A stretch of 64,000 nt of DNA. Source: Amoebophrya sp. A120. Its lineage: Eukaryota; Protista; Dinoflagellata. The first letter of the stretch is position 1, and the number at the start of each line of letters is the position of its first letter. The translations under genes were made by a program, and so were the position numbers. Under the pieces are notes generated by a model. It was not told where the DNA came from. It saw only the letters and a list, made by a program, of their open reading frames with translations, and made no database searches. Below are positions 33,961-56,472 of this stretch, one piece after another. The stretch lies in NCBI GenBank assembly GCA_905178155.1, contig CAJINV010000007.1:2957151-3021150 (forward strand). The letters run 5' to 3'.

Positions 33961-34320
33961 TTTCACAGCGTACTGAGTTTTACTCAGGATGTAAAACAAA
34001 CAAAAGCGTCGCGGAAAAAAAACGATCCATCAATATTTTCGCCTGGATCATAGTTTCAATTCAAAATTTTTGTGTGTTATGTTTCGAAAAATTCAAAAAA
34101 GCTCGTGCAACGAGCAGGAAAATAGTTGTTGATAATGTAGATGTACGTGGAAAATTGAGTAATGTAATGTACGGAAAATGGTGATAAAATTATTTGATTC
34201 CTTTGCAATAATGTACCAGTTGATGCGAAGTCGTTGTTTAGTGTTTTCGTTTGTCGTGAAGTGAAAATCTTTAGCGAGAAATATCGGGGGTTTTCTAGTT
34301 GCCTGGTGCATTCAGTTACA

Positions 34321-34948: not shown

Positions 34949-35823
34949 GTCAATACCGGGTTCATGATAATCATGTTTTCTGAAAAATTCGACGTGAATC
35001 TAAAATGTTTTCCACAATTTTTTCGTTGTATCCGAGGGGTTCTTGGGGAAATGACTATGTCATCATTATCATCATGGTCTAGAGACTACTACATGCATGT
35101 AGTCTTCTGCTTTTGTCGCTACAGCTGCGCTGTGCTGCGTCGGTACGTGGTACTAGCTTGTGTAGTGTGAGGCCGTTTTATTCGGCATGCTTGGGCAACA
35201 CCTCTAGCTGTCGATGTGAAGATCATACTATCTGTAGCTGTGCAAGATACCTGTGCAAGATACGCCTCACTCCTCTTTTCCACAGTAGTAGAGCGAGGTA
35301 AGCACTGAATAACGTGCAATGCCATCATACTCAAATAAGACCATTATCACAAAAAGAATCACACCAATAAGATTTCAGCCACTCGAAGAAAGATAAGGGT
35401 AAGGGGGGTAGGGCAAAGCTTGCTCGGGGACCACAACAATTACATTAATAACGAAATCTTACACCATGATTAGCTCCGGCCTTATATATTAAGAGCATGT
35501 TCAGCAGCAATTATCCATCCACCATGCTGCCCGTGCCGGTGTAGTGGCACGCCTGGCAGTAGCTAGTGCCTCTCGTCATTCAGCATCAGCACTGCTACTG
35601 TTCATAAATTCAGAAGAGAAAATTGTTAGTCTTAGTTCGATCACCTATAATAAAATCCAGCTATCTGTTTGTGTTTTCTTGCTCCTATTTGTACCATCTG
35701 ATTCTTATCTATATGCTAACCTCGTCATTTTCGAAAAACAATCTTGGGGGGGTTCACTAGTATGAATGTGGGTTTTAGGTGTTTGCAGCTCGCACGGGGA
35801 ACGACCACGACCACGCTTCCTTT

Positions 35824-38800
35824 TCAGGTTTTCATTCCCGGCGCTGTGCTTCCCTGACCTGACCCGAGCATGCGGTGGACATCTTCCAAATCCTCACCGG
35901 GTGGATCCGTTCCGGACGCCAAACGACGAACAGGACTGTCGGATCCGGTGGAAGAAACGCTGTTTTTCCTTTCTTTTCTTCTCTTCAAACCCGGGGACTC
36001 AAAGTCGGTGGGCTGCGGGTCCTGCTTGAACATAATTTCCCTGCCGAAGGTCACCGAAGTCCAAAGCAAAGGTGGATCTACTTTGTCAACATGACCTGGT
36101 TGCGTTGCGTGCAGTGCTGCTGCAGGAGCTCCATTATTCTTGCTCAACGTGAAGATATTCTTCCGATCACTGCTACTACTACTGCTACCACCTGCTTCTC
36201 CCAACGCCTGCTCCTCACCAAGGTCGCTTTCCTGTGCCCCTTGCGAGGGGGTCCACGGAGCTGGAAGTTCACCGTAGGCGGAATTATAATACTTCGACTC
36301 GAACGCAACGTCTGGGCCGGTCACCGACCGGAGAATGTCGTCGACCCGCGGCACCATGCTGTTCGTCTTGTCTATCATCGGTGACGCCGCCACCCGCTCG
36401 CACGCAGAGATGGACACGTGTCTCGTAAAGTGCCACACCGACTTGTGGCTTCCGACCAACAGGTTTTGCAACGACTCCGTGGCTTTTTCGTCTTCGCGCA
36501 GCAGAGCCTCCTGCTGATGAGGTGCTGGGTTGTTTGCTCTTCCCACTCGGTCGTAATAAAATCGCAAGTTTATGTCCACTACGTTCAAACTGCACTCCTT
36601 ATCGCTCGGCCGTTTGTATTTCCCAAAACGAGAGCCCTCGCGCAGGTACGGGTCGTCCTGTACTTTCTTCCCCCCGCACGGGCGCTCCACGCCACGGAAT
36701 TGGAGCGACAAGCACCCTTTTTCGACGCCCCCCTCCCCTTGCCAGGAATTCCAATGCACGTCGAACAAAATCCAGTCCTTGTATAGGGGAATGTTCTTTA
36801 ACAGGGACACATGCTTGTCGAGACGGGGCCGCGCAGGGTCGACAACCTTCGGAAACCGAATTTTGAAAAGCTGCTTCTTTGATGCGCCTCTGATTCCTGT
36901 GTCACCACGACTTGGCGTAGCAGTACCCGTACCCAGCAACACTGGTCCACCAACCTCAGTCTCGTCGTCTGGGTCACCCTCGTCTTCGGAAGCCCACCTA
37001 TTTCCGTTTCCACGCACAAATCCCAACAGCGTGGACCCGACGGAAATTTTCCAGTCTTGTTCCATGGGTTGTTTACTACTGGAACTCTCCTCCTGTCTCT
37101 GTGTTTTAATACCACCGTCTTCGTCATCCGTACCCGCATCTGGAGGCAGAAAACCCACGTCGCTCTCATTCGCCAACCTACGACTCTCCTCTCCCATGCG
37201 ACGCACGATCGCGTACCCGGTCTGGATTATCCTCGACGGATCGAAATCCGGGCTGGAAACCTGACCCTCTGCTTCTTTCTTGCGGCGACGCCCTTCCCTC
37301 GCGTAGGTGTTCAATACCGTTCCGCAGGCTATCCGCGCGCGATCCAGGGCGTACTGCAGCGGCGAGTGGTCGTAACTAGGAAACTCCGGCCGGCTTGGGT
37401 CATTTAGCTCTTCGGGCTCGAGGTCGTAGTTGTTTCTGAATGTTAGTTTCGCAAGAAACTTCGAACCCTGCCACCTGGCTTGCGCAAGCAGCTCCTTTCC
37501 CCGCCCAAAGTGCCAGGGTGGCGTCAGACAAAACGGCTCGTCGCCGTGCAGGTCGACGCCAAAGTAACCGCGAGCTCTCGGTCCCTCCTCCTGCAGGGCC
37601 ACAGCAACGTTTCTATAGACCTGTTTTCGCACGATAGCCTCCAAAGGGTCCCGGTGTGGCTTGTTTCTTTGCTCCGGCGGCGTAGATGCGGTCCCGGGAT
37701 GCTGGACAAAATCCAACAACCAATCATTGACGACCGGAGAGCTCAAGTACGACGACCCGACACCGGAATCAATGTCACTGAAAGGAATAAAGAACGCACG
37801 CAGCTTGGATTTCTTCCATTCGTCGCCCTTGCTGTGTTCCAGCATTCTGTAATGTTCGCGCAGCAGATCTGTGACGTAAAACGTAGCGCGATCAGCTACA
37901 AGCACGAAGCTTTTTTCCACGTCAACCCTGACCCGAGCGGTTTCTTCATCTTCGGGCAGCACCCCGTCTAAGGTTTGTTCCCATTTTACCCACAGTACTC
38001 GTAGAAAAAACCGCAATAGCTCTGGATACTCGCATGCAGTGGCAAGGTCCTGATCGTCGTCATACTTCTGCCCCGCGCCGCCCGCCGCCGACGCAGCTTT
38101 CTGGTTCCACTCTGCTTTGAGCATTTCTCTGTGCGCACGGATGGAATCGCCACGCCATTCGTTCCATTGAGCCTTTTCCTCCTCCAGGATATCCCTAAAG
38201 TCCTCAAACGTAAAGTCCGTGAGCTGGCCATTGACGAGGCCCAACAGTCGAGAACTGACGCGTCCCGAATGGAACGGGAACGGCCCTTGCACTTTGTAAA
38301 GCAAAAGAATATCGTCGCCTTCCCTTTCAATCACCCGCGCACCCGCAGCCGCAGCTCCGTTTAAAATGTAGTTCAAACCTTCTGCTGCGTCGTTTTTCCT
38401 GCCTCCGAAGGCTGGCTGAAAGGCGCGCGCGCCACTACGTATGGCTTCGACAGCGACCAGCAACTGAGATGCGCGCTGTAAGTCCTGTAGTGGATTCGAC
38501 AAAAGTGTGGGTCTGCTGTAAGTCCCGCTGTTGCTACTGCTGCTGCTCTGCTGCATTCCAATTCCGTTTCCAAACTGGGGATCAACAATTTTCGAAATGT
38601 GCTCGTCGTGCAGGACGTAAAAGGGTTTCTCGTAGATCAACTTGCTCCACTCCCAGCCCTTCAACATAACACCCTCTTGCCGCCCGACCAGAAAGTTATT
38701 CCCGCGCGGTCGGTCGAAAATATCGCCGTGCCATTTTTGAATGACTGCTGGCACGTGTTGCGTCGCTCCACCGGTGTGTGCAACTCTTCCAAGATTGAGA

Positions 38801-41800
38801 TTTTGATACAGCCACTTCTTCACCTTCTCTGCAGAAACCAGGTCGTCGGAGTTCCATGTTGGCGGTGAAATCGTTCCAGCAGCCGTTGTTTGTCCAAAGC
38901 GATTTAATTGAACGGCGCTCGAGGACGCGGATGAGCTTGACCCTGACCCTCCCGCTCCGAAGGCCTGCTGCTGCTGCCCCCCGGGATGCCGTACCGGGAC
39001 GAGCGGCCCCGCAGTGGTGCCTGAAGGAGACGATGAGCTAGGGGCAGCAACAGGCGAGAGGCCTGGGCTGTGCTGCACCGGTGTGCTCGCTGTTGGAGAC
39101 GATTCTGGCGAACCCGAACTCGGGCTTCCAGCCGTCATATTGGCGACTGTGTTACCTCCTCCTCCGCTAACGAGATGCCCAGACTGCGAAGCCGTCAACG
39201 GTGACGGCAAAAGTGGCTCTGCATAACCCGCGCCAGCAAGAAGATCGCCTGCGGGAGGGCTGGGATGTGCAGGAGACGAGATCGGATGGCTGGCACTCCC
39301 ACTCGCACTTGCCGGTGTCTGGCCCATCTCCGCGGAACCTTCAGGCGCAGGTGTTGTCGAAGCCGCAAAATCATTACCAGAATCTTCCGAAGAACCTCGC
39401 GCACCAGAAACGACCACTTCTACTTCCGCAGCGTCGGGCAGGTTTTCGCCTGTCGCAACGACGGCTCCTGCCTCTGTCGCACCGTGTACGCTTGCTTGCG
39501 AATGCAGCGCAGCCGCGGCACTAGCTTCTGGTACATCTCCTGGGGGGAATGCTCCATCTCCTGTGGGGCTTGCTGGTGCTACTACAGTGCCTCTATAATA
39601 ATTAGGTGTAGTCGCGCCTCCAGTTGCTCTCTGCGGGCTCAGCTGGAAAGCAGGCACAGGTTGAGACCCGACTGGCGCAAGCGGCCCCGGAATGGAAATC
39701 GTCGTTGCGCTAGTACTCGTCGGCATAGAGGCCATTGTGGTGCCTGCGGCACCCACGGCAGTGCTCTGTGCGGCGTCGTTCGTCGACGTTGCAGCAAACA
39801 CACCTGGAATCGCGCCAGCATTCGTTTCACCTTGTCGCTGCCCCAATAGCGGAAGCCCCGGATTAGCCTGGCTTCTTGGTGGGGGAACCGGAACCGGAAC
39901 CGTTTTACCGCCGGGCTTCGAAGTCTGCGACCGCGACCGTCCGCCACTCTGACCACTTGAAGCGGACGACCCAGCACCTCCCGAGGACGGCGTCGATTTG
40001 GTCACGATCCCGGGGAATAATTCCGGTGGCTCGTTCTGTTGAAGCCCAGGTGCTACTCCTGACTGCGGCTGGAGCTGGATGTCGTGATCATCACCAGCAT
40101 CACCCCCACCGTTTCCAGTACCGCCAGCGCCACTGCCCCCCGTCCCAGAAAGACCGCTACCACCATCGCCATTGCCACCGCGAGGTGGGGGAAACAGAAA
40201 CTTTGTAGTTCCGCCGCCACTTTGCCCGTCCTGCGTGTCCATCTTCGCTCTCTCCTGGTCCACTGTGTACACCGCAAACCCGGCCGCTGCCGACACCGTC
40301 CCGGCAACCAGGACAAAAGCCAGCAAAGCCTTCCACGTGAGCAACGAGGAGAAAAACGAGGACCAGAGAGAAGGGTTTGAGCCTGCAGATTCTTGGTCCG
40401 TACTTTTTCCGCCGTCGGCTGCGTAACAGTCCTCCTCGTCGTGGTAGATATCATCCTGCTCCGCGTTACGATCCAGAGCGGTTTGACTTTTGGCAACAGT
40501 AGAATCGGCGTCCTCACCTCTTCTTTCGTGTCCGCCCGACAACAAAGGCATCCCTTGCAGCTCCGACTGTTCTTTCTCGTGGCTGTTCCCTGCTCCAGCG
40601 TCCACCCCTGGTACTACGTCCGGCGGGCTCTGCACAGAGCTAAAGCTATCCTTCCCCGCAGCGTCAAATAAATTATCGTCGTCGTGCAATTTCGCGAGCG
40701 CCTCGGCAACCTGCGTCCACTGTTCGCGTGCGGACGCAGTGTAATTCTTCTCCACCCCGTCGATCGGGTTCTCATCTGGTGTCGTCCCGGCTGCACCCGG
40801 AATGGTCTTAATATATTCTGGCGTAGCGTTGCTCTGACTAGTACTATCACCTCCTTCCCCACTCATCGTCATACCTGTCAGCAGCCCCGCGTCTTCCACT
40901 AGACTTCCGCTCTTGCTGATGTGCTTTTTGTGCAGCACCGTGGCGGTACTCCCCCAGATGGGCCGGATGTCCGCGCGCTGAAACGGAAACTCGACAAGAG
41001 ATTGCAAAGATTTCTCCACTTGCTCCAGACAAAGCACTTCCTCCCGGAGAAACGCCGCCGTCGGCCGTTTTTGCGCGTCACGGATCAGGCAGGATTGCAG
41101 CAGGTGCATCAAGTGGGAAAATTTCAGGAACAGAAGCTGGTTTTTCTCACTTTGTGAGAGAAATTCCACTTGTGCTGTTGTAGTCGTACAACTACTGCTG
41201 TCGTAATTTATTGTTGTTCCCCCGTCGTCAAAAGTTGTAGAGCCGCCATGGGACCACAGCGATTTGTTCCCACGACCCGCCGAGCCAGCGAACGTGAAGG
41301 TGCTCGAACTTGTTCCTCCCGCTGGAGTTGTAGTTCTCTGTCCTGCGCTATCTTCTGGGGAGAAGAACAGCGCCCCGTTATGGTCTTTTCCTGTAGTACT
41401 GCTACTACTCCCGTACACCTCTTTCACGTCTTCTGCGCCGTACAGGTAGTACCGATCTGGGTACTGGATCTCCATAGTCGGATCCACGATGCAGAACATG
41501 ACCCGGTTCTGGTTCCCCCCGTTTGCGTAGAGGTAGGCGTGCGGCGGCTTCCCGTAGATCATCGCGTACAGGATGATCCCCAGCGACCAAATGTCCGTCC
41601 CGGGCTTCATCTTCATGCTGCTTTCGTACTGGTCGCCCTGGAAAAACGCCTCGGGCGCCATGAACAGCGCGGTGCCGCACTGTCCGTGGCGGGAAATGTG
41701 CGTTTTGTCCTGCTCCAGCACCCTGGCCAATCCAAAATCGGACACCTTGATCTTCGTCCGATTCTCAAACAGCAAGAAGTTCGCGGGTTTCAGATCGAAA

Positions 41801-43350
41801 TGCACGATGTTCTGACTGTGGATAAATTCCACCGCCGCAGCCATCTGGCGGAAGCAGTGGAGAATGGTCGGCAACGGCATGAAGTCCACCTCGTCCGCGA
41901 AATGTTGGTGATTCGAGTCGTTCTTACCAATTTCGTCCCGCACAGAGGAACTTGCCCCGCCTCCTGCGTTGTTGAACAATTTCCGTCGCCGCTCTAGGAT
42001 CTCCCGTCGCCTCTTCGCGGTGGAGGAAGCATTTGAGGACAACTTCGGCAAGAATTCCTCGTGGAAGGCCTTGAAGTCGCAATCCGCAAATTCCAACAAA
42101 ATGTACAATTGCAGCGTTTCGGGCTCGCACCGACTGCCGAAGCACCGCACAACGTGCTCGCTGTAGTTCGTTTTCCGGTTCTGGTCGGTGAGGTTTTGTA
42201 ATAAGACCACTTCCTTTGCGTAGTTTTCCATCTGCGTGTAGGTCTGCGCCTTCACAATCTTCATCGCGTAGGATTTTTTGTCCCGGCGAACCCGGTACAC
42301 CTCCGCCGACCCGCCGCGGCCGAGCAGCTCATAAATGTCGAAGGTTTTTCCGTCCTCCAGCGCGAAGGTGGAAGTGCTAACGCGGGTCGTCGTGGTTCTA
42401 CTTCTGGCGGTCGTGCGTCGGTAATGATTCTCCAGGAAGAAACTAGGACGATCATGATGTTCTGCCGGCAGATGGGATGCATTATCGGGACGAGCCATTG
42501 GAGGCTGCTGGCCGCTTGGACCTACGATTATGGGAGGTGGCGGGGGTCCTCCGTGTGGACGCTGTGCAGTAGCAGCTTGCTCATCATTTATTGCATTTTG
42601 CACCGGTGGAAGTGAGATGTTCTGCACTGCTGGTGCCTGCGGGTCGTCCTCCACGTGGGCAAAAACCACTGCTGGTGCGCTTGCGACAACATCAACATGA
42701 TCGTTCTTGTTTTGGCCATATAATTCTTCATCTTCTGACCTGGGAGGTCCAGGAAGACCCTCTTGCGCACCCTGTTTCACCTCCAAATGTTTCTCATACG
42801 GATGATTTTTCGGCGTCCACGCAAGTGTTGTGGTCGTCACCCGCCCGGGAGCCGTATCATCTTGTTCAAGAGCAAGTAGATGTGACTGAGAATCCAAAAA
42901 ATCTTCATCCCCACCACCTCCACTACCGATCCTCAGTGCACGACCTCCAGCTGCTCCTTGTTCCAAGGTCGAGGCCGACGGGCGGAAGCTCTTACCTTCG
43001 TAAGCAGTCGGCGGAAGAGCAGAAACAGAGGACATGAAGCTGCTCCGGCTGCCTGTTAGTGTTCTTCTTTTCGGTTCAAAAGTATGGAATCTTCCGTTCT
43101 GAAGATGGGATACGGAACCATTTTCTTTTTCAACAAGAGCATCTTCGTCGTCCCGCACTTCATTCTCGTCTTCCACCGAGGCAGCTCTGGGTGTCGGGCG
43201 GGGTCGGGGGCCTAGTTTCAGCAAGCCCGCGTTAACATTGACGTCACGGGGGTCGTCTGTTTCTTCATGAAAAGAGGAGCCGCAGTCGTGCTGCTCGCCA
43301 GTGAGGGGATTTAAAAAATTAAAGGGAAGTAGATGCACCGGAGAGGACAT
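35824..43350 (-). CDS. Mps1/TTK-like protein kinase + single TM helix + long C-terminal region (2508 aa), paralog 1
   Basis: LGRGGSAEVY, YAMK, HFDLKPANFL, SDFGLA, GTALFMAPE, DIWSLGIILYAMIYGKPP; TM segment LLAFVLVAGTVSAAAGFAVYTV (~40260-40335). Confidence 0.85.
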   Translation of the reverse strand: MSSPVHLLPFNFLNPLTGEQHDCGSSFHEETDDPRDVNVNAGLLKLGPRPRPTPRAASVEDENEVRDDEDALVEKENGSVSHLQNGRFHTFEPKRRTLTGSRSSFMSSVSALPPTAYEGKSFRPSASTLEQGAAGGRALRIGSGGGGDEDFLDSQSHLLALEQDDTAPGRVTTTTLAWTPKNHPYEKHLEVKQGAQEGLPGPPRSEDEELYGQNKNDHVDVVASAPAVVFAHVEDDPQAPAVQNISLPPVQNAINDEQAATAQRPHGGPPPPPIIVGPSGQQPPMARPDNASHLPAEHHDRPSFFLENHYRRTTARSRTTTTRVSTSTFALEDGKTFDIYELLGRGGSAEVYRVRRDKKSYAMKIVKAQTYTQMENYAKEVVLLQNLTDQNRKTNYSEHVVRCFGSRCEPETLQLYILLEFADCDFKAFHEEFLPKLSSNASSTAKRRREILERRRKLFNNAGGGASSSVRDEIGKNDSNHQHFADEVDFMPLPTILHCFRQMAAAVEFIHSQNIVHFDLKPANFLLFENRTKIKVSDFGLARVLEQDKTHISRHGQCGTALFMAPEAFFQGDQYESSMKMKPGTDIWSLGIILYAMIYGKPPHAYLYANGGNQNRVMFCIVDPTMEIQYPDRYYLYGAEDVKEVYGSSSSTTGKDHNGALFFSPEDSAGQRTTTPAGGTSSSTFTFAGSAGRGNKSLWSHGGSTTFDDGGTTINYDSSSCTTTTAQVEFLSQSEKNQLLFLKFSHLMHLLQSCLIRDAQKRPTAAFLREEVLCLEQVEKSLQSLVEFPFQRADIRPIWGSTATVLHKKHISKSGSLVEDAGLLTGMTMSGEGGDSTSQSNATPEYIKTIPGAAGTTPDENPIDGVEKNYTASAREQWTQVAEALAKLHDDDNLFDAAGKDSFSSVQSPPDVVPGVDAGAGNSHEKEQSELQGMPLLSGGHERRGEDADSTVAKSQTALDRNAEQDDIYHDEEDCYAADGGKSTDQESAGSNPSLWSSFFSSLLTWKALLAFVLVAGTVSAAAGFAVYTVDQERAKMDTQDGQSGGGTTKFLFPPPRGGNGDGGSGLSGTGGSGAGGTGNGGGDAGDDHDIQLQPQSGVAPGLQQNEPPELFPGIVTKSTPSSGGAGSSASSGQSGGRSRSQTSKPGGKTVPVPVPPPRSQANPGLPLLGQRQGETNAGAIPGVFAATSTNDAAQSTAVGAAGTTMASMPTSTSATTISIPGPLAPVGSQPVPAFQLSPQRATGGATTPNYYRGTVVAPASPTGDGAFPPGDVPEASAAAALHSQASVHGATEAGAVVATGENLPDAAEVEVVVSGARGSSEDSGNDFAASTTPAPEGSAEMGQTPASASGSASHPISSPAHPSPPAGDLLAGAGYAEPLLPSPLTASQSGHLVSGGGGNTVANMTAGSPSSGSPESSPTASTPVQHSPGLSPVAAPSSSSPSGTTAGPLVPVRHPGGQQQQAFGAGGSGSSSSASSSAVQLNRFGQTTAAGTISPPTWNSDDLVSAEKVKKWLYQNLNLGRVAHTGGATQHVPAVIQKWHGDIFDRPRGNNFLVGRQEGVMLKGWEWSKLIYEKPFYVLHDEHISKIVDPQFGNGIGMQQSSSSSNSGTYSRPTLLSNPLQDLQRASQLLVAVEAIRSGARAFQPAFGGRKNDAAEGLNYILNGAAAAGARVIEREGDDILLLYKVQGPFPFHSGRVSSRLLGLVNGQLTDFTFEDFRDILEEEKAQWNEWRGDSIRAHREMLKAEWNQKAASAAGGAGQKYDDDQDLATACEYPELLRFFLRVLWVKWEQTLDGVLPEDEETARVRVDVEKSFVLVADRATFYVTDLLREHYRMLEHSKGDEWKKSKLRAFFIPFSDIDSGVGSSYLSSPVVNDWLLDFVQHPGTASTPPEQRNKPHRDPLEAIVRKQVYRNVAVALQEEGPRARGYFGVDLHGDEPFCLTPPWHFGRGKELLAQARWQGSKFLAKLTFRNNYDLEPEELNDPSRPEFPSYDHSPLQYALDRARIACGTVLNTYAREGRRRKKEAEGQVSSPDFDPSRIIQTGYAIVRRMGEESRRLANESDVGFLPPDAGTDDEDGGIKTQRQEESSSSKQPMEQDWKISVGSTLLGFVRGNGNRWASEDEGDPDDETEVGGPVLLGTGTATPSRGDTGIRGASKKQLFKIRFPKVVDPARPRLDKHVSLLKNIPLYKDWILFDVHWNSWQGEGGVEKGCLSLQFRGVERPCGGKKVQDDPYLREGSRFGKYKRPSDKECSLNVVDINLRFYYDRVGRANNPAPHQQEALLREDEKATESLQNLLVGSHKSVWHFTRHVSISACERVAASPMIDKTNSMVPRVDDILRSVTGPDVAFESKYYNSAYGELPAPWTPSQGAQESDLGEEQALGEAGGSSSSSSDRKNIFTLSKNNGAPAAALHATQPGHVDKVDPPLLWTSVTFGREIMFKQDPQPTDFESPGLKRRKERKNSVSSTGSDSPVRRLASGTDPPGEDLEDVHRMLGSGQGSTAPGMKT

Positions 43351-45143
43351 CTCGTCCGATCAATACACTTCTTACTTCTGACGAAAGTCCATCGAACGAA
43401 CTTTGTTCATAATTTCTTCCGGTTTTTAGTTTCACGATTAAAAATTTCATACAGTGTCTTCGTAAAAGTAAAAGGAGCTTGTACTTCTAGATTTTCACTC
43501 ATATCGAACTTGAGGTGGGTTTACAACCTTTTACTTCTTGATCTTTCTACACGATTATGAGGATGTTCAAACGAGGTCAGGTTCCAAAAGTTCCTTTCTT
43601 TTTCTACTGTAGCTGCTACCAGCAAATATTTTATGCTCGTGTTCGCGCTAGACAAACACGGAGAGTTGAGTCAGAATCTGAGCCTCGTCGTATAGAAAAA
43701 AATGACTTCAACGAGTTGAGATGGAGACTTCAAACGATATAAAAAAAACTTCAAATATTTGCGTACGTGTTCAAGACAGGGGTCCAAATCCTTCAAAGGC
43801 CACTACGCAGTCAGAAGTAACAAGGAAGTACTCGGGGTGGTAAAAATTGTCCAATCACGATTATCGAGAACGAGAGGTCTATCTTCTCTTCCGGTTAAAA
43901 ATACGTGGAAGGACGTGCGCCTTTCAAGGTGTTAAATATCTAGCAAGACCACGCTTCGTCACAATTATACACCTGGATGTGATTGTTGTTTCAGGAATCA
44001 GGGAGAACGAAAAGTGTCGACCGAGGACTCAAAGGTGAGACTTATTTCTGACACACGAATACAAGGCCATCATTTCAATTTTTCATTCGATCTTTCCTGC
44101 GGAGAAACGACTCTCCACTACGACTATGTATGATCCAAGCAATTTGAATTTTGCATGTTCATACAGATCAAGAGCATTAATTTCAGACAAGAGTGCTCGG
44201 GAAGGGTGCAATTTAACATTTTCATCCCGAAATTTGCACCGAGCACAATGATGTGGCAAGATCACGATTAGAATCACTGACCGAAAGACCGAACTCTTTT
44301 CTTCACTCTCAGAACTCATCTTGTTGATCCATCTATTTAATGTAAGATTTTTGAGCTACTCGATATCATCCTGCAACTCGGCTGACCAGAAATGTTTTCA
44401 CCCGAGATCATTTTGTGGATTCCGGATGATCATGAGAAATAAACAATACGTAGTTATAGCCACACCGTGCAATAAAATTCGTCGGAGAAATGAAATAGAA
44501 ACAGATAGCTTAAAAAGTTCTATCCAAGACCAAAAGAATCGTTTCAGGCGGGTGGTAAACGAAGAACCACAACGTGATACATCCGGGGTATTCATATTTC
44601 TCACTTGTCACGACCTCAATCAAATAAAAACACTTTTCGAAGATCTCTACGCCTGCGAGATTGATTCATCGCGAGGCAGAAAAAAAAAAATGCCATATAT
44701 CATCCTTGCTATGGGAACCATGCTATGTCAAGGTTGTGACATGTGTGTATGTATGTATGTTTAATTATGAATTCTCATGAAGTAAAAACGAAACGGGTGA
44801 AACAGAAACAGTTTCTAGTACAATAAATTTTCCACGGTTGATGTATGAATGCAGTGCACATAGCGGATGTCAGAGTGCCGCGTGTAAATCCAATCGTTCT
44901 TCGGGTACTATAGACATTTGACTGTTGAATAAAGAAGTTATTTTGGGTTCCTACATCACTGTAAAAATAACACGCTAGTGAAACTGGCAAGTGGAAGATG
45001 GGGGGGAGGGGAAACTAGAAAAAGGAAAAAACAAAAAGTCATTCGCTTGAAAAATAAAAAAGAAAAACACAGCCTTGCGTTTCGCGGAGGTGAGCGCCGG
45101 CTCTGTCTGAAGTTCCTTCACTATAAAATACGTCACGTTCGCC

Positions 45144-48100
45144 TCAGTCTGAAGTGGAATCATCCCAGATCACGATCGGAGCCGCACAAACACCCCTTTC
45201 CCACAGACCGATTGGTGAGGTTGTCTCGGTAGGGGTCGCCCCGGGTCCTGTTGATGGGAATGGTGATCCCGGACGGTTTCCTTGAGCCGCCTGGTTACGA
45301 ACGCCCTCGAGGCCGCAATCCCTTCCGAAGAGTTTGGTCGGCGGGCCGCTTTCCTTTAGGATGTCATCGACGTGCTTGCTACGCCAAAACGGGAGGTTCT
45401 CACTTCCGTAACTTTGCGCCATTTCCGCGAATATTCTTACATGTTTCCTCAGTTCCCAGAGCGAATCTTCATTCTTCTGTAAAGCGGTTTTTAAAGGCGG
45501 CAGGTCCTCGATCTTAATGGAACCCCGAGATTCTGGCTCAGAACTGCACTTGTAAAAAAAGTGGATAGCAACATTTACCAGCGAAAACTTATTTTCCGTG
45601 GCGTCTTCTCCGAATGAGTCCACCCCGCGAAACTGCAACACGACTCGTCTACCATTGATCCCGTCGACATATTCGGTACTGAAGGCTGCAAGAAACCAGC
45701 GCATATTTTGCAGCGGAAGGGTGCGGAGACGAACTACGTGTGGAGAGTTGGGCTGCGAGGGTGGAGGAGCATCTCCCTCGGCTCCCGATGGCGGGTCAGA
45801 ATCATATTCTCGAACCTCGTAGTTTCGACTAAACCTCAACAAATTCCGAGCGATGACCGACCACCAGGAGGTAGGCTCCTCCTCACGGCTCGCATCTGAA
45901 GATGCGGAAGACGATCCACGAGCACCAGTATCCTGAGCAAAAACGTCCCCACACCAGAGTCAAGATGGGAAATCTGCTAGACAAATCAACCAGCTTTAGT
46001 TGTTTCGCATGACAAGTTTGTCGTCGTAGTCTGGTCCTGTTTAGCTAGTTCAGCAGCATCACAGATCTAGAATATCATGCTGATTCTAGCATTAAAAATT
46101 CCCAAACACGACTAGAAAATGCTTCTCATGGGGCTCCGCATGAGAAACTTTTTTGGCATGTAGATTGGGGTGGGGACGTTTTTACTCAGAATAACCAGGT
46201 CGCGTTCTTCTTCTTGGCACGTAGCTGCTGTACTCCTCATCCGGCCTTCCTAGCTCTTGCACAATGCGATATCCAAGATCAATCAGCCCAGACTGGTCTG
46301 CACCAGCGTCTCGCAGGTCGTGCTCTTCCCTCTCTGCGCGTGCGAGCACAGTTCGCGTGTACGAACGCAGTGCCAGTTGCTGGTTTGCGGTGAGTACGTC
46401 CTGCAGATCACGCAACCATGATGTAGTTCCCGAATCACGGTAGATCTCGCGCCGAACTGTCGTTTCCAAAAGATCTTGATAGTCAAGGGCACCTGATGCA
46501 GTTAGTGTGCTTGTGGGAAGATGAGACCTGCTTTGTTCCTGCGTCGAAGCTCGTCCAGGATCCGCAGTGGTAGCTCCTGACGGCACGACCAACGAAATCG
46601 TAAGAAAAAATCCCCCCTCCCAATATCGAAGAGGTGCGCCTTCTAATGCTGATTTGTGGCCACAAATCGCGTCTGTCCTGCAAGGAGGCAAGTCCACAGG
46701 CTCCGCCGCATTATGCAGGCGGCTTGTCATCCTGTTGGGCCTACAGCGCGGACGTTTTTCATGCTAAGCGCCTAGGCCAAAGCCTCTCTACTCAGGCTTA
46801 CTATGGGTCTGCAGTCCTCTCCAGCACGACAAACCTGATTTGTGTACGCAAATCCAGCATCAGAAACTTCGTTTTTGATATGGGGAGAGGAGATTTTCCC
46901 TTTGGATAAACGAATCAGAATCTTCCGGTCGTGTGCTGGTCACACTCCCGTATCTTGCAAAGTCCTTTATCCAGTCCACTACCCTTGCGCTGCTAAAGGT
47001 AGCAAAAAGGCTCGGGAACGTCGAAATACAATCCCTTTCCGCTGTGACAGCCAAAGAAGAACGCGCTGGTAGTACAGTAGCAAGACCGTCACTGCTCTGC
47101 TGAGCAGTGGAAGGCTCTCTCGTCGTGTAATGCGATTTCAACACCTCCGCGACATAACCTGCGGCACACTCGCAGGCCGCTGTGTAGGCTCGGTCAAACG
47201 CAGCCCTCTGCCGCTCAACCTCTGAACGAAGACCTGCTGTTCCCGGCAACAAACCGATCTGTTCTGCTTCTAGCGCGTTGCGCTTCGTTCGCACCAAGCG
47301 CAGCAGCGCACGCAGCGCTTCCGGCAGCCGGCGAGCTTCCGAAGCGGGAGCTTCCGAAAAGTTTTGTCCATTTTGGCTGTGCGCCTCGAGTGTCCGTCGT
47401 TTCCGCTGGGACCACGCGGAGGAAGTAAGTTGTATTGCCGTTCCGCGATTGTGCGCCATCCTTCGGTGGTCCCGCATCTCCTCCAGCAACGTTGTTAAAA
47501 AAGACCGCGGCACCAAATCACCAGCTTCAGGAGCGGTGTCGTCTTCTTCTACCCGAACTTCCTCCGGATCCTGCATTCTATACAGCAGTAGCACATTCTC
47601 ACCTTCTCGCTCAAACGAGCGCGCGTTTTCGCCGACTATGCGGCTGTGCAGCCCGAATGCCCGAGCCCCGGAACGGAGTGCCGCGACTGCCACCAGGAGC
47701 TGGGAAAGCTCCCCGAGCTTCTTGAGACGAGTGTCTAGTAGGTCGTGTTCTCGCGTCTGCCCGGATGGCAGTAGTCCCTCCCCCCCATGGGCACCGTTAT
47801 GTCGAAGCGCAGCTACTAGCGCGCCTCGGTCCGGCGCGGCGCCGCGCAACTGGTGCCCCATCAGCAACTCAAACGGCGCCCCATTTACGAGCCGTTCCCA
47901 CTCCTCACCGCGCAACCTCCAACCCCAAGGCTCACTCTGTGGTAGCGACGGTCTCTCAAACTCAAACATGTCCCGGAAAAACTGCAGTCGCGGGTAGAGC
48001 GCGTATAAGTCAGAAGATTGCTCATTCTGTCGATTCGCTGGTGTGATCACCTGCTCTGCATCAGGAATATCACCCGCATCAGCGAGTTCCTGCGCAGGAG

Positions 48101-51100
48101 AAAGTTCCCGACGCGGCCGCGTGTTAGCTCGCCGGTATCTCTCCTCCGCCTCCCGCCGTTCCGCGGCTCTGATAAAGTTGACATCGACGTGCTTCGTCTG
48201 ATTTCCGTTCGCCCTTGCTGCTTTCACCAGCTTTTCGCGGACCACACTTGCTGGCAAGCGGGGTGTAGGTGGTAGCCATGAGCCTTGCAAATAGCGGCTT
48301 CTTTCCCGTCTTACGCGCCGCCACCGCAGGTCCCGTTCCGTCAGCTCGATGGCAGAAAGAGGATCGCGCGGCGGTGGTAAGAACGAGGGCATGTCTAGTA
48401 CTTCGCGCGTCCTCTGCAGCCGGTGTTGTTGTTCTTCTTCCCCGTCTTCCCCCGGACTTGTCTGGGCCTGATCAACGTCAACCGCTGCACTTCCAACCTG
48501 ACCGCTTCCGGCGCTGCCCGAAGATGCCCCTTGCTGCTGTGGATGAACTTGCCCGGAAGATGAATCGTCCGCACTGCCCGCAGCCGCGGTCCTCGCTACA
48601 GGTTCCTCCAGGTCGCGCTCGTCCTCGTCCCCAAAGTAGAACAAAACCGCTTCTTCCGGGGTCAAAGAACCGGTTCTCGACGCCAGGTCGTTGCTCGGAG
48701 GTGCTGCTGCAGAAGAAGGTTGCGGACCAAGAGTGCCCGTTTCAGTGACTGGCCGTGCGCTCACGGGCGGAGAAAACGGGTCAGGCGTTTGATCAGTGGG
48801 AGGAGTAGCCAGCGCCGTACTACCCGCATCTACAACCGCGGAGGTATGCCCAGCGTCGCCTCGCTCTTCACCCATTGGTAAAACAGGTGTCGTCGGGAGA
48901 AGAAGAACGTTTCCAGAACCAGTGCTAGCCGCGCCGCGGTCAGCGTCAGCAGTCAAAGCCTCATCTCCGTCGTTGGATAAAGACGGCCCTGCGTCCCCAG
49001 GTGAAGCTACGACCTCTACCGGACTCCCGGGTGCTGCAGTGGGAGGAAAATTTGTTGCGATAACAGCTGAAGACAACTGATCACTTTCCTGGAGTTGTAG
49101 TTCTCCTGCTGGAGACGGGACAGCCGCACTGGACGCCGCTGATGCCCCTTCCAGAGCTGCAGACACCGTCACGCCAGATTCCTCCGCTAGTACCTCCGCC
49201 GACGCCACTGTTCCTGCTTCCGCAGGAGCTTCGGTAGGCCCGTCGAGTGCTTCGTGCTTTGGGGCGGGCGTCGGGCCCGCTTTTGGGGACGGAGGTGGAG
49301 GATTACTCGACTCGGACTCACCAGCTGGTGCTACATCAAAATTCGCTAGTGCCTCCGTCTTCGCGCCTGCTTTTGCGGAAGGACCAGTTGTCGTTCCACT
49401 TTCGTCACCTGCTGTCGCGTCTTGATGGTGTTCACCATCATCATCTTCTTCTCCAACACCTGTACTCGCTTCTGGCGTGGAGATCGCTCCCACCGCACCA
49501 GCCTCTCCCCCGCCCACTTGCACGTTCGGGCCGCTGGTTGGCGGCTGCGGCACAGACCCTCCTTGGGGCTGCTGTGCGAGGAAAGGCTGCGGGAGTTGGA
49601 TAGTAGCTTGCACCTGCTGCGGCTGTGGTGGCAGTTGCGGTGGCAGCTGTGGTGGCAGTTGTGGCGGCAGCTGCGGTGGCGGTGCTGAGGCCTGTGGCCG
49701 TGCTGCAGACACGCCCGGTTGCGGTCCTGGTCCACGCGTTCCTGCGAGACTGACCTGCTGCTGCGCGTTCCGAACAACCGCTTGTCCACCTGCTCTTGCA
49801 TCGTGTGGTCCCACCGTGACTCCTGGTGGCTCCGGAATGTCAAGACCCGGAACGCCGACTATATCATCTACCGCCCCTGGTCCGGTCGTCGGGAAGAACG
49901 GCGGCGGAGGTTGCAGTGGCGCTAAAGGAAGAAAGTCCCCACCACCTTCACCTCCAAAGCCGTCTGAAGATCCAGCAGTGATACCGTGGTTGTTTCCCGG
50001 CCCCCCTGATATGCCGGCACTGGTTCCGTTTCCGGATTCTCCTGCCGTCCACACCGGTTTATTGTGTGCTTCGCCCATTGGATGCTGTTCGTCCCCCGTT
50101 CCCGGCAAAAACCCAGAAACCGTGAGGGACTGCCGCGAGCTTTTCTTCCGTTGCATGTTCGCCATGGCCACGCCGATGCCCACCGACATACCCACGCCGC
50201 CCAGGACCACCAGCACCAGGATCACGCCGGGCAGCGAGATGACCGACCAAACTGCGGAGAGGCAGGTGCGCGATTTGTCGCTCTGCTGTTGTTCGTGGTG
50301 GTCGCCCTCTTGGACTTTGTTGCGGACTTTTTTCGGTGATGTCGTGGACGACCCACGGGGAGAGGATCTCGTTCCAAGCGAGGATTTATTTCCTAGCAGC
50401 AGCTGATCGCTTTCGTCGAGGTTCTGTTCCTGATTCTGTCTCATCTGTTCTTCTCGTCCGGGAGGAAACGAAAAACCAGCTTCGTTGTCTTCCAGGGCAA
50501 GGTTCTCGTCGTCACCAGCATTTTTCGCAGCGGAAGTTACTTCTGGACAGGCCGTCCGCCGTTCATTTGTTTCGCCGATTTTTTGATGGGATGAAGATAC
50601 ATCCACCTCGTTCGCTTGTTCATCTACTGTGCAGCCAGGAGGACTCTCACCGTTTTTTCTGTTTCTTTGCAAAAGCGCCGACGTCTCGCTTTCGCGGTCC
50701 GAGCGAGAGCTCGTCACGACAGAGGTCTCGCCTGCTTCTACACCGCCCTCCTGCCCCGGAGAACTACCGGACAGCCCCGTGCTTTGCGTCTTGTTGCTTC
50801 TCCCACTCACGATGTGCTTTCGGTGCAACACGGTGGCGGAGCTTCCCGGGATCGGGCGGATCGGTGCACGCTGGAACGGAAAATGATTCATCAGCTCCTC
50901 AACAGCAGTCATGTGAGCATTCGTTTCAAGCCGGCCACTTTGATTCACTTCCAACTGCTGGAGACTTACCAGTTCACGATGCAAGCACTCCGCCGTCGGC
51001 CGCCGTTCCGGCTCGCGCTCCAGGCACGCTTGCAGCAGGTACATCAGGTGTTCAAACCTCAACCCGTCTAATTGTTCCGCGTAAGGCCGCTGCATCTCCT

Positions 51101-53372
51101 CGTGGCTGCCAGAAGCGGGTGCAATTTCCGTAGCACCCTGGAAGTTTCTGTACACTTCGTACCGGTCTGGATACTGGATTTCCATTTTTTCATCCACGAT
51201 GCAGAACATGACGCGGTTCCCCCCGCCCCTCTGATTGTACAGGTACGCGTGCGGCGGCCTCCCGTAGATCATCGCGTACAGGATAATCCCCAGCGACCAA
51301 ATGTCCGTCCCCGGCTTCATCTTCATGCTACTTTCATACTGATCCCCCTGGAAAAAGGCCTCCGGCGCCATGAAGAGCGCTGTCCCGCACTGCCCGTGGC
51401 GGGAAATGTGCGTTTTGTCCTGCTCCAGCGCCTTCGCCAGGCCAAAGTCGGACACCTTGATCTTCGTTTTCTGCTCGAACATCAGCAAATTCCCCGGCTT
51501 CAGGTCGAAGTGTACAATCTTTTGCGAATGGATAAACTGCACCGCCGCGGTCATCTGGCGGAAGCACTCGAGAATGGTACGAAGCGGCATGAAGAACTCC
51601 TGTCGCTGGCGGCGGAAAATCAGTTTTGGCGGCTCTTGGTGCTTCTTGCGGTCGTCGTGTACTTGGTCTTCTTCTACTTCGGGACCACAACCGCTACCCT
51701 CTTCATCAAGCCTGTTCCCATTTATTTCCCCCGCAACATTTTTGCTCCTCTCCACGAGGTACCAAAACTCCTTGTGATAACTGTGAAAGTCGCAATCGGC
51801 AAACTCGAGCAGAATGAACAGCCGCAACGTGTCCGCTTCGTAGCGCGAGCCGAAGCAGCGCACCACGTGCTGGCTGTAGCCGGACTTTCTGTTTTCGCTT
51901 GTCAATTGCTCCAGGAGCAGAACCTCTTTTTGGTACGTCCTCAGCCGCTCTTCGCTCTGGGCCGCCACGACCTTCATGGCGTAGGAGTTCCCGTTGCGGA
52001 CCACGCGGTAAACTTCCGCCGTGCCCCCCCGGCCGAGCAGATTTTGCACCACAAAGGACCCGTCATCGAGCGAAAACGACGACTTGACGTCGCGCAAGGA
52101 ATTTAATTCGGCTCCTTCGGTGTTGTCGTCGTTGCTTTCTGACAGAAGGGGTGGCACGGCAACAGCTGGTCCTGGTGCATGCTCTGATACAACTACTTCT
52201 GCGTTTTGTCCTCTAGTACCAGCTGGCTGGGTACAACTAGAAGCAGCTTTATTTTGCGTTAGTGGCAATAGACGCTGCTGCCCTGATGTCGCGGGTGCTG
52301 CCCCTTGTCTGTCCAGAAAATAACCGGCACGGTGCCGCGTTGCGCTCGTTCCTGCACCGCGCGGTGCGTTGTGCTCGTTCCGGTTGATGTCGTCCCCTCC
52401 TTGTGCCAACAGCTGGTTGTAGTATTCAAAGCCACTGTTAATATCTGACGAACTCGCCGTTGCGGCCGGGCGTCGCGCGTCATCGCTGACCCGCGGCAGA
52501 AACTCGGCGTCCGGGAGAGTTTGCGTAGCCGAGGAACTGTTGAAAAGAAAGCGCTCTTGTTGCTGGTGGGTGGGCGAAGAAAAAAGTAGCGGCGGAACGG
52601 ATAGTGGCGGCCTGTTCGATGGGGAGCAAGCGACTGCAGTTGTCCTTGACGTCTCGCGTGCAGCTGCCCATTCTGCTGTAGCGGATGGCCGTTCTTCAAG
52701 CGGACTTGTTTCTTGCGCTTTCCAATTAGCGGAATGCGACGCAGCGCCCTCGTTGTCGCCAGCGAGCAAGTACGCGAAAGAACCTCGTCCTCCGGTGTTG
52801 CTGCAGAAAGACGCTCGCCTGCCCTTGTCGGTACTGTCGTGTCGCCGTGGTTCTTGTGATGCGGTTCCAGTACCGACAGCAGGATTCTTTCGCTTCTCGT
52901 CTGACAGGAGCTCCTCATGCTCGCATCCCAGTGAATCCTGCGCTTGCTGTTGATAAAACTCTTGCTCTACTACTTCGCAGTGGGAACCATTCACAAAGGC
53001 TTGAAAAGCCGCGTTTCTGTCTGCGATCTTGTTTCTATTTTCCAAATGTAGTTGTGCCGCGACTCTGTTTGGTGTGCCTTCGGTGGTATCCGTGTGGTTG
53101 CTACAAGTGCTGGGGGTTCGACAGGTTTTGTTCTTGTTCCTTTGGGTCGTCGCTACTACACTTTTACTTTGGTCGTGTCCCTCTGTCTGCCTGTCTTGGT
53201 CGTGCTTCTTGTACTCATTTTTCTGTCTTGACGTTGTTGAATTTGATATATCATCACCAGAATTATAATCGTCCACTTTGCTGCGCTGTCCTTCATCTGA
53301 GGTCGAAATCATACTGCATGACGCGGCGTCCTCCTGATCTGCAGCGCAGTGAAGCGACATCTCTTTCCGCAC
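45144..53372 (-). CDS. Mps1/TTK-like protein kinase + single TM helix + long C-terminal region (~2,540 aa), paralog 2, 3 exons (53372-46909, 46590-46194, 45923-45144)
   Basis: Same kinase motifs; TM segment VISLPGVILVLVVLGGVGMSVGIGVAM. Three ORFs join in frame after removing two TIR elements, and exons 2-3 match the C-terminus of paralog 1 (LQFRGV, RKHVRI/RHVSI, VDDIL). Confidence 0.85.
45929..46193. mobile_element. Introner-like element (265 bp), distinct TIR, TSD ACCAG
   Basis: accag|tatcctgagcaaaaacgtccccac ... gtggggacgtttttactcagaata|accag; removal gives RTRPG|ARGSS. Confidence 0.92.
46596..46908. mobile_element. Introner-like element (313 bp), long imperfect TIR, TSD AACGA
   Basis: aacga|aatcgtaagaaaaaatcccccctcccaatatcgaa ... 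ttgatatggggagaggagattttccctttggata|aacga; removal gives DSDS|LVVPSG. Confidence 0.85.
49621..49680 (-). repeat. 12-bp coding tandem repeat (PPQL)n
   Basis: PPQLPPQLPPQLPPQLPPQP in kinase paralog 2. Confidence 0.8.
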
Positions 53373-54354: not shown

Positions 54355-56472
54355 TCATTCTGCGCGATCCACGCGTCGCCACTGGTTATCTAGGTCCTCC
54401 TTGAAGATGCGAACGGTTTCCTCCTCCCCGCAGGAGAGGCAGACACACAACCCCGTCACGGACCACGTGACACGGTTGACCGGGAGGTTGTTCTCTACAT
54501 GTATCTATCAAATGCAAAAATGTCTGGGTCTGGAAGAGTCATGCTGCTTTTGCATGACACAGTAGGGCTGTCATGGAAGCTCTAGCATCACAGGTTTCGA
54601 GAAGCTTCCGCAATGCCAAATCCGCATGACAAATGCCCCACTTTGGTGACAGAAAGTGGGCAGCTTTTGCTGCCTACGCATGAGAGATTTTTGTGTGCTG
54701 TGAAATGCGCATCACAAGTTTGCATTCTTCCAGACCCAGACATATTTGCAATGCATAGTATCGTCGCGCTGTTCTGCCAGTTCAGTCCCTCCATGGTCTG
54801 CACCCATATTTTGCACGTTCCGTCCTCGTATCAAAAGTAAAAATGTCTGGGTCTCGAAGAATGCATGTTTGTCATGCTTGTCTGGCATAACTTCTAAATC
54901 TGTCATGCACGTTACCCAAGAGCTCCATTTTTCTGTGATGCAGCAACGCAGTTTGTCATGCAGAATAGGCAACACCTAGAAGCTCAGAAACTTGTCATGC
55001 TAAGCCAGTATTTGTGGCCTCATCATGAGACGCCACCCAGCATCACAAGTTTCCAGACCCAGACATTTTTACATTTGATACCTCGGAACCGGAGGCGAGA
55101 AAATTCGAGGGGATGCCGATGTTCGGTCGCCAGGCGACGGATCGCACGGGCCCTGCATGAGAGGTCGGGGGCGGGACGGTGGAGCCCCCTCCAGACGGGT
55201 GCTGGTCTCCTTCGGGGTTTGGTGGCACTGGAGGTGAATCGCCGCTACTGCTCAGAGTGCCCTCTTCCACCCACTTTTTGTCGTCGGCGTTCCAGCGCCA
55301 TATTTTCACGTTGGAGTCGAAGCCGCCGGACACTAGTCTCCGCGGCCGCAGCGCGGGCATCATGTACCCGCCCTGCACCGCAGGGCCGGAGGCGAGGGTC
55401 GCCGGGCTGACGGGCACCGCCCAGCTCACGCTGGAAACGCCGTTTTGATGGGCTTTCAGCACGCCAATCTTCATTAGGGGGCCCGTCTGGTTTTGCGCCT
55501 CGAAAATGGTCACGAGGCCACTGGAGGAACCCGCGGCAATGAACAAGCCGAATCTGCGAAAATAAAAATCTTCTCAATTATCCGATGCAAAAAGTCTACC
55601 TCGATTCAGGGTTGGTTCTCTTCCACGTGCAGCTGCGGCGCATGATGTCGAGACAAACAAACCTCCAATTATCAGGAGTCTCATTTCAGCCTCTTCTTCC
55701 CGTCCTATGCAGCATCTAAGTATGCGCAATAAGATCCGATCGATAGATAAACATTGAGAAATAATCGTAATCCACGCAATCAACACAATACTCTTTCGGC
55801 CCTATCTGCACAGTTGTGGCAGCCCCGTCCAGCCTTTCTCGCCACACCAGGGACCAGTCGCCGGGCCGCCCTTCTCGCCAAAGCATCACACTGCCGCACG
55901 CGCCGCACGCTGCTATCATCGTCCCTTGTGTCGGGTCGCTCCAGCAGATCTGCTGCAACGGGCCGGCTACCTGTCGTTTTTTGTTATGTTTCGTTTATGT
56001 ACTATCTCGAGAACTTCCACGGACACGGAGACTCGTGCAATTTACCTTCTACGAGAATCTGCTAGAATTAGCCGTGTCGAGACACCAAACAAATCTTCCA
56101 CTGAAACCTATACCCAAAACCACAGCAGGCATCACAATCACTGTTGGTAGGTACGTAGAAAGAAAAAACATATACATCTGGGTGCTCCAGTCTGGCGACC
56201 AGTCTGGCTTCTTCTGTGCCCGTGGCCAACTTTGACACAATATTCTCCCCCGCTGTGGAGATTTCGTAGACAAAAATCACCCGGTCGCCGCAGACCGCGA
56301 GCCGTTTGCCATAGTAGTCGATGGCCAGATCCACGATCTGGGTGTTCTCCGGCACGTCAATCGTGCTGTCGGCCACCAGATTCGTGCTCCCCCCGCCGCC
56401 GCTGTAGATGGGAGCCGATGTCATGTACTCGCGCAGCCGCGCGTCCGCGGGCAACGTCGGGGGCGCGACCAT
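54355..56472 (-). CDS. SEC13: Sec13 WD40 protein (COPII/nucleoporin), 386 aa, 5 exons (56472-56176, 55970-55792, 55553-55081, 54823-54758, 54500-54355)
   Basis: DYYGKRLA, GPLQQICW, GPKEFGLFIA, AHQNGVSSVSWA, RLVSGGFDSNVKIW, VRSVAWRPNIG, LASGSE|DGTCKIW, RVTWSVTG, KEDLDNQW. Two GT-AG introns (56175-55971, 55791-55554) and two introners; exon total 1161 nt. Confidence 0.9.
54506..54757. mobile_element. Introner-like element (252 bp), TIR family A, TSD GTATC
   Basis: gtatc|tatcaaatgcaaaaatgtctgggtctggaaga ... tcttccagacccagacatatttgcaatgcata|gtatc. Confidence 0.93.
54829..55080. mobile_element. Introner-like element (252 bp), TIR family A, TSD CCTCG
   Basis: cctcg|tatcaaaagtaaaaatgtctgggtctcgaa ... 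ttccagacccagacatttttacatttgata|cctcg. Confidence 0.95.

Follow-up and report, generated by a model that had tools for sequence, protein, structure and literature searches.

The question raised by this locus is how a relative of the mitotic kinase Mps1 (TTK), which normally is a soluble protein with its kinase at the C terminus, could have become a membrane protein, and what such a protein might do. The locus lies in a 64,000-nucleotide stretch of contig CAJINV010000007.1 of Amoebophrya sp. A120 (positions 2,957,151 to 3,021,150; hereafter the window), in which the long reading frames are found exclusively on the minus strand. Two of the genes, termed A and B here, had been described in an initial annotation as tandem, membrane-anchored Mps1/TTK-like kinases with a common C-terminal domain, possibly belonging to a receptor-like family of inverted topology. 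The two paralogous genes in tandem are real, both frames being present and colinear, and each protein has the order first proposed for it: kinase, one hydrophobic helix, low-complexity stalk, and then the shared blocks. The interpretation that we favor, with confidence and doubt in about equal parts, is that A and B are tandem paralogues acting as back-to-front (type II) receptor-like kinases whose activation comes from clustering.

Kinase domains of genes A and B

Both gene products match the Pfam kinase model (E 3e-37 for A and 5e-38 for B), and the PDB sequences matched at E<=1e-20 are human TTK in 22 of 22 cases, in agreement with the kinase class assigned at the outset. Non-RD Mps1-like rows, that is, kinases without the arginine-aspartate (RD) pair in the catalytic loop, dominate the best 150 library matches. 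The GxGxxA glycine loop, the AMK lysine, the helix C glutamate, the DFG and APE motifs, and the subdomain XI arginine are kept in both kinases, and the catalytic loops (HFDLKPAN and HFDLKPGN) are likewise non-RD. The activation sites of human Mps1 are T676 and T686, as given in PMC5863767. Alignment to TTK, with the number mapping made in this analysis, places threonine at both positions in A and B. Judged from their sequences, the kinase domains of A and B are Mps1/TTK-like, with intact catalytic motifs. The kinase does precede the helix, as annotated; it is not strictly N-terminal, however, and is preceded by ~340 disordered residues in A and ~450 in B.

From the activation segment to helix F, the two proteins are identical over 56 residues, where about 50 had been noted before. 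Three A120 paralogues keep 41–47 of these 56 positions, and because of this conservation the identity is mostly the result of selection, to which partial or old conversion, or local codon bias, may have contributed. Degenerate codons are the same in A and B at 39 of 51 sites inside the run versus 96 of 188 outside it (Fisher p 0.0013, for a region picked post hoc). Gene conversion as the sole cause was considered and ruled out, given the conservation in the paralogues and the 12 of 51 degenerate codons that differ. A stretch of 36 bases is identical between A and B (41684-41719 and 51394-51429) and, together with the raised synonymous identity in the activation segment, is a possible trace of old gene conversion. 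The kinase locus was not found in metagenome contigs, and a search of the ESM Atlas with the AT5 protein returned generic kinases.

Predicted membrane helix and topology

Membrane helices were called from a Kyte-Doolittle hydropathy scan. The top 19-residue window scores 2.23 at residue 1012 of A and 2.57 at residue 1063 of B, with the runners-up at 1.17 and 1.09, and the single membrane segment of the initial annotation is thus predicted here as well. A linker separates the helix from the kinase, and beyond the helix 1,481 residues follow in A and 1,478 in B. The post-helix stalks have a Lys/Arg fraction of 0.04, against 0.07–0.13 on the kinase side. Neither a signal peptide nor a hydrophobic N-terminal stretch was found in A, B or the other family members tested.

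By default insertion, a folded domain that has no signal peptide and precedes a single internal helix stays in the cytosol, and tails of 20–25 residues after the helix fit tail-anchoring, in which the kinase is necessarily cytosolic. Because a signal peptide is absent and the family includes tail-anchored relatives of this kind (see below), the kinase is likely positioned in the cytosol, with the head in a lumen or outside the cell. An acidic dileucine sorting motif before the helix was also considered; it is present in four of six proteins, in none of them above shuffled sequences (p 0.05-0.35), and was dropped as evidence.

The head shared by A and B

The heads of A and B are identical at 211 of 718 aligned columns (29%). 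Local alignment scores are 215 before the first intron of gene B and 85 after it, compared with maxima of 60 and 66 in 300 shuffles, which upholds the C-terminal domain proposed to be common to the two proteins. Every motif quoted in its support was located in the sequence, with LQFRGV and VDDIL of gene B lying in exon 3 behind two non-canonical introns. The domain had also been taken as the mark of a kinase family, and this part of the proposal fails, since a profile of the head matches only the two window proteins among all proteins fetched. A protein database search with the head returned none among proteins of 1,381-4,395 residues, a range outside which shorter stand-alone heads would fall. 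The head has no family in Pfam, NCBIfam, PDB sequences (E<=10) or viral contigs, and the ESM Atlas gave no usable match. The AlphaFold check suggested for it produced no usable fold: the mean predicted local distance difference test score (pLDDT) is 33.8 from a single sequence and 36.3 from two sequences, too poor for a fold search. A match of the head profile to residues 1989-2028 of AT5 P0079, covering the RAF ... GL ... AR..EREG block that is best conserved between the two heads, was rejected as too weak (E 0.011, probability 3.8%). So far, only two genes are known to carry the head, which, as far as its sequence goes, marks their duplication and not the kinase family.

Relatives of A and B in Amoebophrya

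Two database searches and one library search identified relatives in Amoebophrya A120, A25, AT5.2 and Ameob2. The rows were grouped with a quick tree on 158 rows, minus four without the catalytic motif and 14 of the 22 RD rows; neither group includes the other RD rows, a further two on the outgroup side or two that had no clear place. With a threshold of at least 1.75, a hydrophobic window outside the kinase is present in 18 of the best 150 library matches (eight Amoebophrya-type, one canonical Mps1-like and nine RD kinases of different types). Of the 22 Amoebophrya-type rows, 12 have a hydrophobic helix after the kinase, namely the window pair and ten further members, versus 1 of 106 canonical rows, and the helix of that lone row is homologous to a soluble helix that comes after the kinase. 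The other 10 of the 22 are without a helix, seven of these being at most 541 residues long or marked partial. The anchor may not be universal among Amoebophrya-type rows, or gene models may be wrong.

The N-terminal targeting region differs as well. A TPR (Mad3/Bub1-like) profile, built from four canonical proteins that are all among its matches, is matched by 38 of the 75 canonical rows long enough to contain it and by none of the 11 Amoebophrya-type rows with a long N terminus; Pfam finds no TPR in A or B. Canonical rows have a median of 232 residues beyond the catalytic loop. Two Mps1 proteins of core dinoflagellates (Gymnodinium smaydae, strain TGD) are canonical and soluble, and no named Amoebophrya protein is among the canonical soluble rows.

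The part that follows the helix is highly variable in length, from 20 and 25 residues (AT5 P0006 and Ameob2 P0015) through 86–92 residues (two A120 proteins and an A25 protein marked partial) and 280–660 residues (an AT5 protein, two A120 proteins, one of them with a RING finger, and another member) to 1,767 residues in AT5 P0079. Apart from those of the A/B pair, the heads are mutually unlike. Of the receptor-like family of inverted topology that had been proposed, the family itself and a layout reversed with respect to type I receptors are supported; several members, with tails of 20–92 residues, leave no room for a large ectodomain. In the A120 paralogue CAD7973263.1 (P0004), a C3HC4 RING finger at residues ~975-1040 lies past the helix and a stalk. 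The AT5 model P0021 (g16632) is identical to the complete Ameob2 transcript P0015 up to mid-helix and then continues into an F5/8 type C (discoidin) domain, and is likely a gene-model fusion; the RING tip of CAD7973263.1 and other predicted heads may be model fusions too. The window pair is better founded than these other heads, because its head recurs in both genes and gene A is intronless.

The main tree was calculated from 43 selected rows (16 Amoebophrya-type, eight from the dinoflagellate branch, 15 other canonical and four distant outgroup). The kinase phylogeny bears out the relationship of the pair: the Amoebophrya-type rows form one branch (96/86), in which A and B are sisters (99/94) within an A120 branch (100/99). 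AT5 represents a separate expansion, and the tail-anchored Ameob2 protein, known from a complete transcript, splits first. When rooted on distant kinases, the Amoebophrya-type family is the sister of all canonical Mps1, with long branches, and a branch uniting it with dinoflagellate Mps1 is not rejected (p 0.115 in the approximately unbiased (AU) test). The family is likely Mps1-derived. Within the dinoflagellate branch, the Mps1 rows split into two groups (P0018, P0049, P0054 and P0056; P0016, P0034, P0041 and P0046), which hints at an Mps1 duplication in core dinoflagellates.

Gene structure, transcripts and introns

The features of both genes are collected in Table 1. All RNA support comes from contigs of four runs, taken to be RNA and belonging to one study. 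These contigs cover gene A piecewise from 34980 to 40642, including stalk and head. In gene B, the intron 1 joint is found in contigs of all four runs and the intron 2 joint in three of the four, both joints being absent from the DNA run, and a single RNA-type contig joins all three exons. Splicing yields a frame of 2,559 codons that stays colinear with gene A through to its end. Contig depth declines from the 3' end toward the kinase in both genes, cannot rank gene parts and was not used as evidence; uncovered bins over the kinases prove nothing. Three raw-read RNA runs bearing this species label yielded 0 reads here and are likewise no evidence in either direction.

Table 1 Coordinates of the features of genes A and B in the window
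Feature	Position	Strand	Support or remark
Gene A open frame, 2,511 codons, 7,536 bases	35824-43359	-	Uninterrupted, intronless
Gene A coding sequence, 2,508 residues counted from first Met (predicted start)	35824..43350	-	Single open frame
Gene A Mps1/TTK-like kinase domain, residues 340-785, two long inserts	41005..42342	-	Pfam and PDB matches
Activation segment to helix F run, 56 residues, same in A and B	41551..41718	-	A/B alignment
Gene A predicted transmembrane helix, residues 1012-1030	40270..40326	-	Kyte-Doolittle 2.23; bridged by RNA-type contig 39833-40642
Gene A Pro/Ser/Gly/Ala/Thr-rich stalk, ~465 residues	38872..40269	-	
Gene A head, ~850 residues, without family or fold match	36310..38871	-	
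Probable gene A 3' untranslated region	34980..35823	-	RNA-type contigs of four runs stop at 34980-35012; single study
Gene B opening frame, 2,183 codons	46860-53411	-	
Gene B exon 1: N-terminal region, kinase, predicted helix, stalk and first half of head (predicted start)	46909..53360	-	
Gene B Mps1/TTK-like kinase domain, residues 453-825, catalytic motifs kept	50937..52055	-	
Gene B predicted transmembrane helix, residues 1063-1081	50169..50225	-	Kyte-Doolittle 2.57
Gene B Pro/Ser/Gly/Ala-rich stalk, ~630 residues	48279..50168	-	
Gene B intron 1, 318-base non-canonical introner, terminal hairpin, 6-base direct repeat	46591..46908	-	Joint 46590/46909
Gene B exon 2, middle of head	46194..46590	-	
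Gene B intron 2, 270-base non-canonical introner, 28-base inverted repeat, 5-base direct repeat	45924..46193	-	Joint 45923/46194
Gene B exon 3, last part of head, including LQFRGV and VDDIL	45144..45923	-	
Probable gene B 3' untranslated region	44680..45143	-	RNA-type contigs stop at 44680, 44680, 44692 and 44521; one study

Summed DNA depth reaches 11,954 over intron 1, compared with ~43 in the flanks, and 39,338 over intron 2, hundreds-fold above its flanks. Because of this excess, both introns are concluded to be present in high genomic copy number. Introners of Amoebophrya carry terminal inverted repeats of 8-20 bases and direct repeats of 3-5 bases (Farhat et al. 2021, PMC7789003). The gene B introns resemble them in having non-canonical ends, inverted and direct repeats and a hairpin fold, and in being multicopy and spliced; they slightly exceed the published lengths in their arms (~28 bases) and in one direct repeat (6 bases), with no essential difference otherwise. 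Gene B introns 1 and 2 are Amoebophrya-type introners. A second repeated, introner-like family with near-identical inverted arms of 30–43 bases is found at 22903-23178, 26141-26406, 32334-32586 and 54505-55081, and more hairpin-ended elements are located at 570-747, 10960-11157 and 23213-23424.

Proposed mechanism and alternatives

For human Mps1 without its N-terminal extension, forced dimerization or clustering suffices for activation, via phosphorylation of T676 and T686 (PMC5863767). Since clustering alone activates Mps1 that lacks the targeting region, an anchor could stand in for the kinetochore. We propose that in an ancestor within Amoebophrya the kinetochore-targeting N terminus of Mps1 would have been exchanged for a C-terminal anchor, and that later paralogues would have had the far side extended with stalks and unrelated heads, independently in the A120 and AT5 lineages; the window pair would represent a single duplication inside that expansion. 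Binding to the heads, or crowding, would cluster the kinases, which would phosphorylate one another and become active. The membrane anchor would in this way substitute for the kinetochore as the clustering device, and a stalked head would place clustering under control from outside. A broader claim, which we make only tentatively and regard as the doubtful extension of the first, is that Mps1 has been rebuilt here as a membrane protein, with the kinetochore module lost, a tail anchor gained, maybe no soluble copy remaining, and a family of receptor kinases with swappable, long-stalked heads that read the host compartment.

Several observations weigh against receptor-like kinases with the head outside. 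No ligand-binding family or fold was assigned to the head in the searches above, no cysteine is aligned between the heads of A and B, and N-glycosylation sequons are not enriched (2 versus 7.1 expected in A, 3 versus 5.5 in B). The RING finger of CAD7973263.1, in a predicted gene model, is a cytosolic-type domain situated beyond the helix. Three long Amoebophrya-type rows (877, 1,049 and 2,417 residues, two of them AT5 gene models), which do not look like evident fragments, are without a helix. The flanking-charge rule favors the kinase inside in six of 12 members, with four reverse and two ties, and gene B leans to the reverse side, having a net charge of +4 after the helix versus +1 before it. 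Lastly, none of the RNA contigs listed joins the kinase core to the helix in gene A or gene B. This last gap is what would be expected if kinase and head were separate genes or transcripts running together in one frame, and fused gene models do occur in the Amoebophrya group (P0021 versus P0015); such an artifact is nevertheless very improbable, as the 2,511 codons of gene A contain no stop, the order and the head recur in paralogue B, an RNA-type contig bridges the gene A helix while others tile its stalk and head, and a post-kinase helix is present in ten other members.

The charge asymmetry of gene B, formed by a basic cluster after the helix, and the same lean in four of 12 members would also suit a reverse topology, in which the kinase faces outward and phosphorylates host proteins, like the secreted ROP and FIKK kinases, while the head resides in the parasite cytosol; this would account for the cytosol-like character of the heads. 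It is an improbable arrangement, given that no signal peptide was found, that ~1,000 residues, a folded kinase among them, would need to be moved across the membrane before the internal helix, and that under the general insertion rules tail-anchoring, with a cytosolic kinase, suits the members whose tails are 20–25 residues long. The same cytosol-like heads, which share no cysteines, are poor in sequons and in one paralogue carry a RING finger, could instead point to an enzyme or a binding domain whose site of action is the host cell, either displayed or cut off, with the kinase as trafficking control or carrier. The rapid turnover of heads between paralogues speaks for such a role, as does the habitat of A120, which is first a vacuole within the cytosol of the host and later the host nucleus (PMC9478091). 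We give this proposal little credence: the export-like motif RxLxE/D/Q is present in none of six proteins tested over the first 80 post-helix residues, no catalytic family was found, and fusion may also account for the RING model, as a complete transcript contradicts an AT5 model of similar kind.

A different role altogether would be that of a membrane-tethered mitotic Mps1, in which the anchor takes the place of the N-terminal TPR module and keeps the kinase either at the nuclear envelope or at the centriole pocket, with stalk and head serving as luminal spacer or scaffold and not as a sensor. TPR loss coincides with helix gain, the canonical soluble rows contain no named Amoebophrya protein, and grouping with dinoflagellate Mps1 is not rejected by the AU test. 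In Syndinium, the attachment of chromosomes runs through the nuclear membrane, and in Amoebophrya a fusion of membranes lets the spindle into the nucleus (PMC12114471); both syndinian kinetochores and the spindle of Amoebophrya are tied to the nuclear envelope. Core dinoflagellates, however, have membrane-based kinetochores too and yet possess soluble Mps1 (Gymnodinium smaydae, strain TGD), and ~1,480 residues past the membrane, together with paralogue-specific heads, are hard to square with one conserved mitotic job. Most canonical rows carry no species name, and a soluble Amoebophrya Mps1 may be among them. Such a tether is likeliest for the short tail-anchored members and fits the window pair less well; taken over the whole, we consider it unlikely, if deserving of serious attention. 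For A and B, clustering-activated receptor-like kinases with the kinase in the cytosol remain our preferred interpretation.

Neighboring features in the window

The other genes of the window show no apparent functional link to the kinases. One frame at 59278-60933 (minus strand) carries both a SelR/MsrB domain (E 8e-35) and a SET domain (E 9e-10), which would be an unusual combination unless two genes share the frame. A calcineurin-like phosphoesterase (PPP-type) gene apparently extends over three long frames at 19783-25470 (minus strand) with hairpin introns between them. An RNase T-type exonuclease and a CCCH zinc finger gene are located at 1290-2495 and 32518-34029, respectively, both on the minus strand. 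At 27318-28724, a perfect 21-base inverted repeat, its copies 1.4 kb apart, surrounds long hairpins (27366-27418 and 27481-27616) and is possibly a mobile element.

Comparison with known systems

A membrane-anchored Mps1-like architecture is apparently undescribed so far. Titles and the starts of abstracts yielded no literature on a membrane-anchored Mps1 of Amoebophrya, in a search outside which subscription journals and preprint supplements lie. The words 'kinase' and 'transmembrane' are absent from the main text of the Amoebophrya genome paper, in the part of it available, and Mps1/TTK is absent from the one supplement searched (PMC7789003). According to that paper, ~60% of Amoebophrya proteins have no assigned function, and the literature searches made turned up no signaling receptor for host recognition or stage change in Amoebophrya. 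These organisms kill bloom-forming dinoflagellates, and membrane kinases with fast-changing heads would be concrete receptor candidates. An Mps1 relative without the kinetochore module and with an anchor, in a cell whose spindle crosses the nuclear envelope, also turns the placement of a checkpoint kinase into a testable question, for which Mps1 inhibitors and the phospho-site logic of human TTK provide ready probes.

The window kinases have their best solved match in Mps1/TTK (human TTK, PDB 5ntt and others; core dinoflagellate Mps1 such as Gymnodinium smaydae P0034) and share with it the non-RD HxDLKPxN loop, the activation-segment threonines in register and an Mps1-like C-lobe. They differ from it in overall build: window-type proteins have no TPR, and the kinase lies in the N-terminal third, followed by a predicted helix and up to ~1,770 residues, whereas a soluble protein with a C-terminal kinase does not describe A and B, in which the helix and ~1,480 residues come after it. 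Amoebophrya-type kinases also occur as several paralogues per genome.

Type I receptor kinases, which include animal receptor tyrosine kinases, plant receptor-like kinases and the transmembrane kinases of Entamoeba, are single-pass proteins. The window pair resembles them in the single pass, with a kinase on one side and a large domain on the other; the order is reversed, no signal peptide and no Cys-rich or repeat ectodomain is present, and the kinase is Mps1-like, not of the tyrosine kinase (TK) or tyrosine kinase-like (TKL) groups. Compared with the apicomplexan ROPK and FIKK kinases, no signal peptide or export motif was found ahead of the kinase in either window protein.

The closest correspondence in layout is with bacterial Hanks-type kinases, PknB, StkP and PrkC with their PASTA repeats and the PknH type with its proline-rich linker, which are built from kinase, helix, stalk and distal head and are activated by dimerization. 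A and B have the same order of kinase, one helix, stalk and head, and their sidedness would be the same if the topology predicted above is correct. RD kinases with the order kinase, helix, head and with PBP or FHA domains were also among the matches. The bacterial kinases are RD and those of the window non-RD, RD rows fall outside the Mps1-like branch, the PknB_PASTA model scores 86 bits against a cut-off of 450, and neither PASTA nor any other known head is present in the window pair. The likeness to the PknB layout is convergence, not descent. If the broader claim of a rebuilt Mps1 is true, Amoebophrya would provide a eukaryotic reinvention of that bacterial layout, derived from a mitotic kinase with a ready-made clustering switch.

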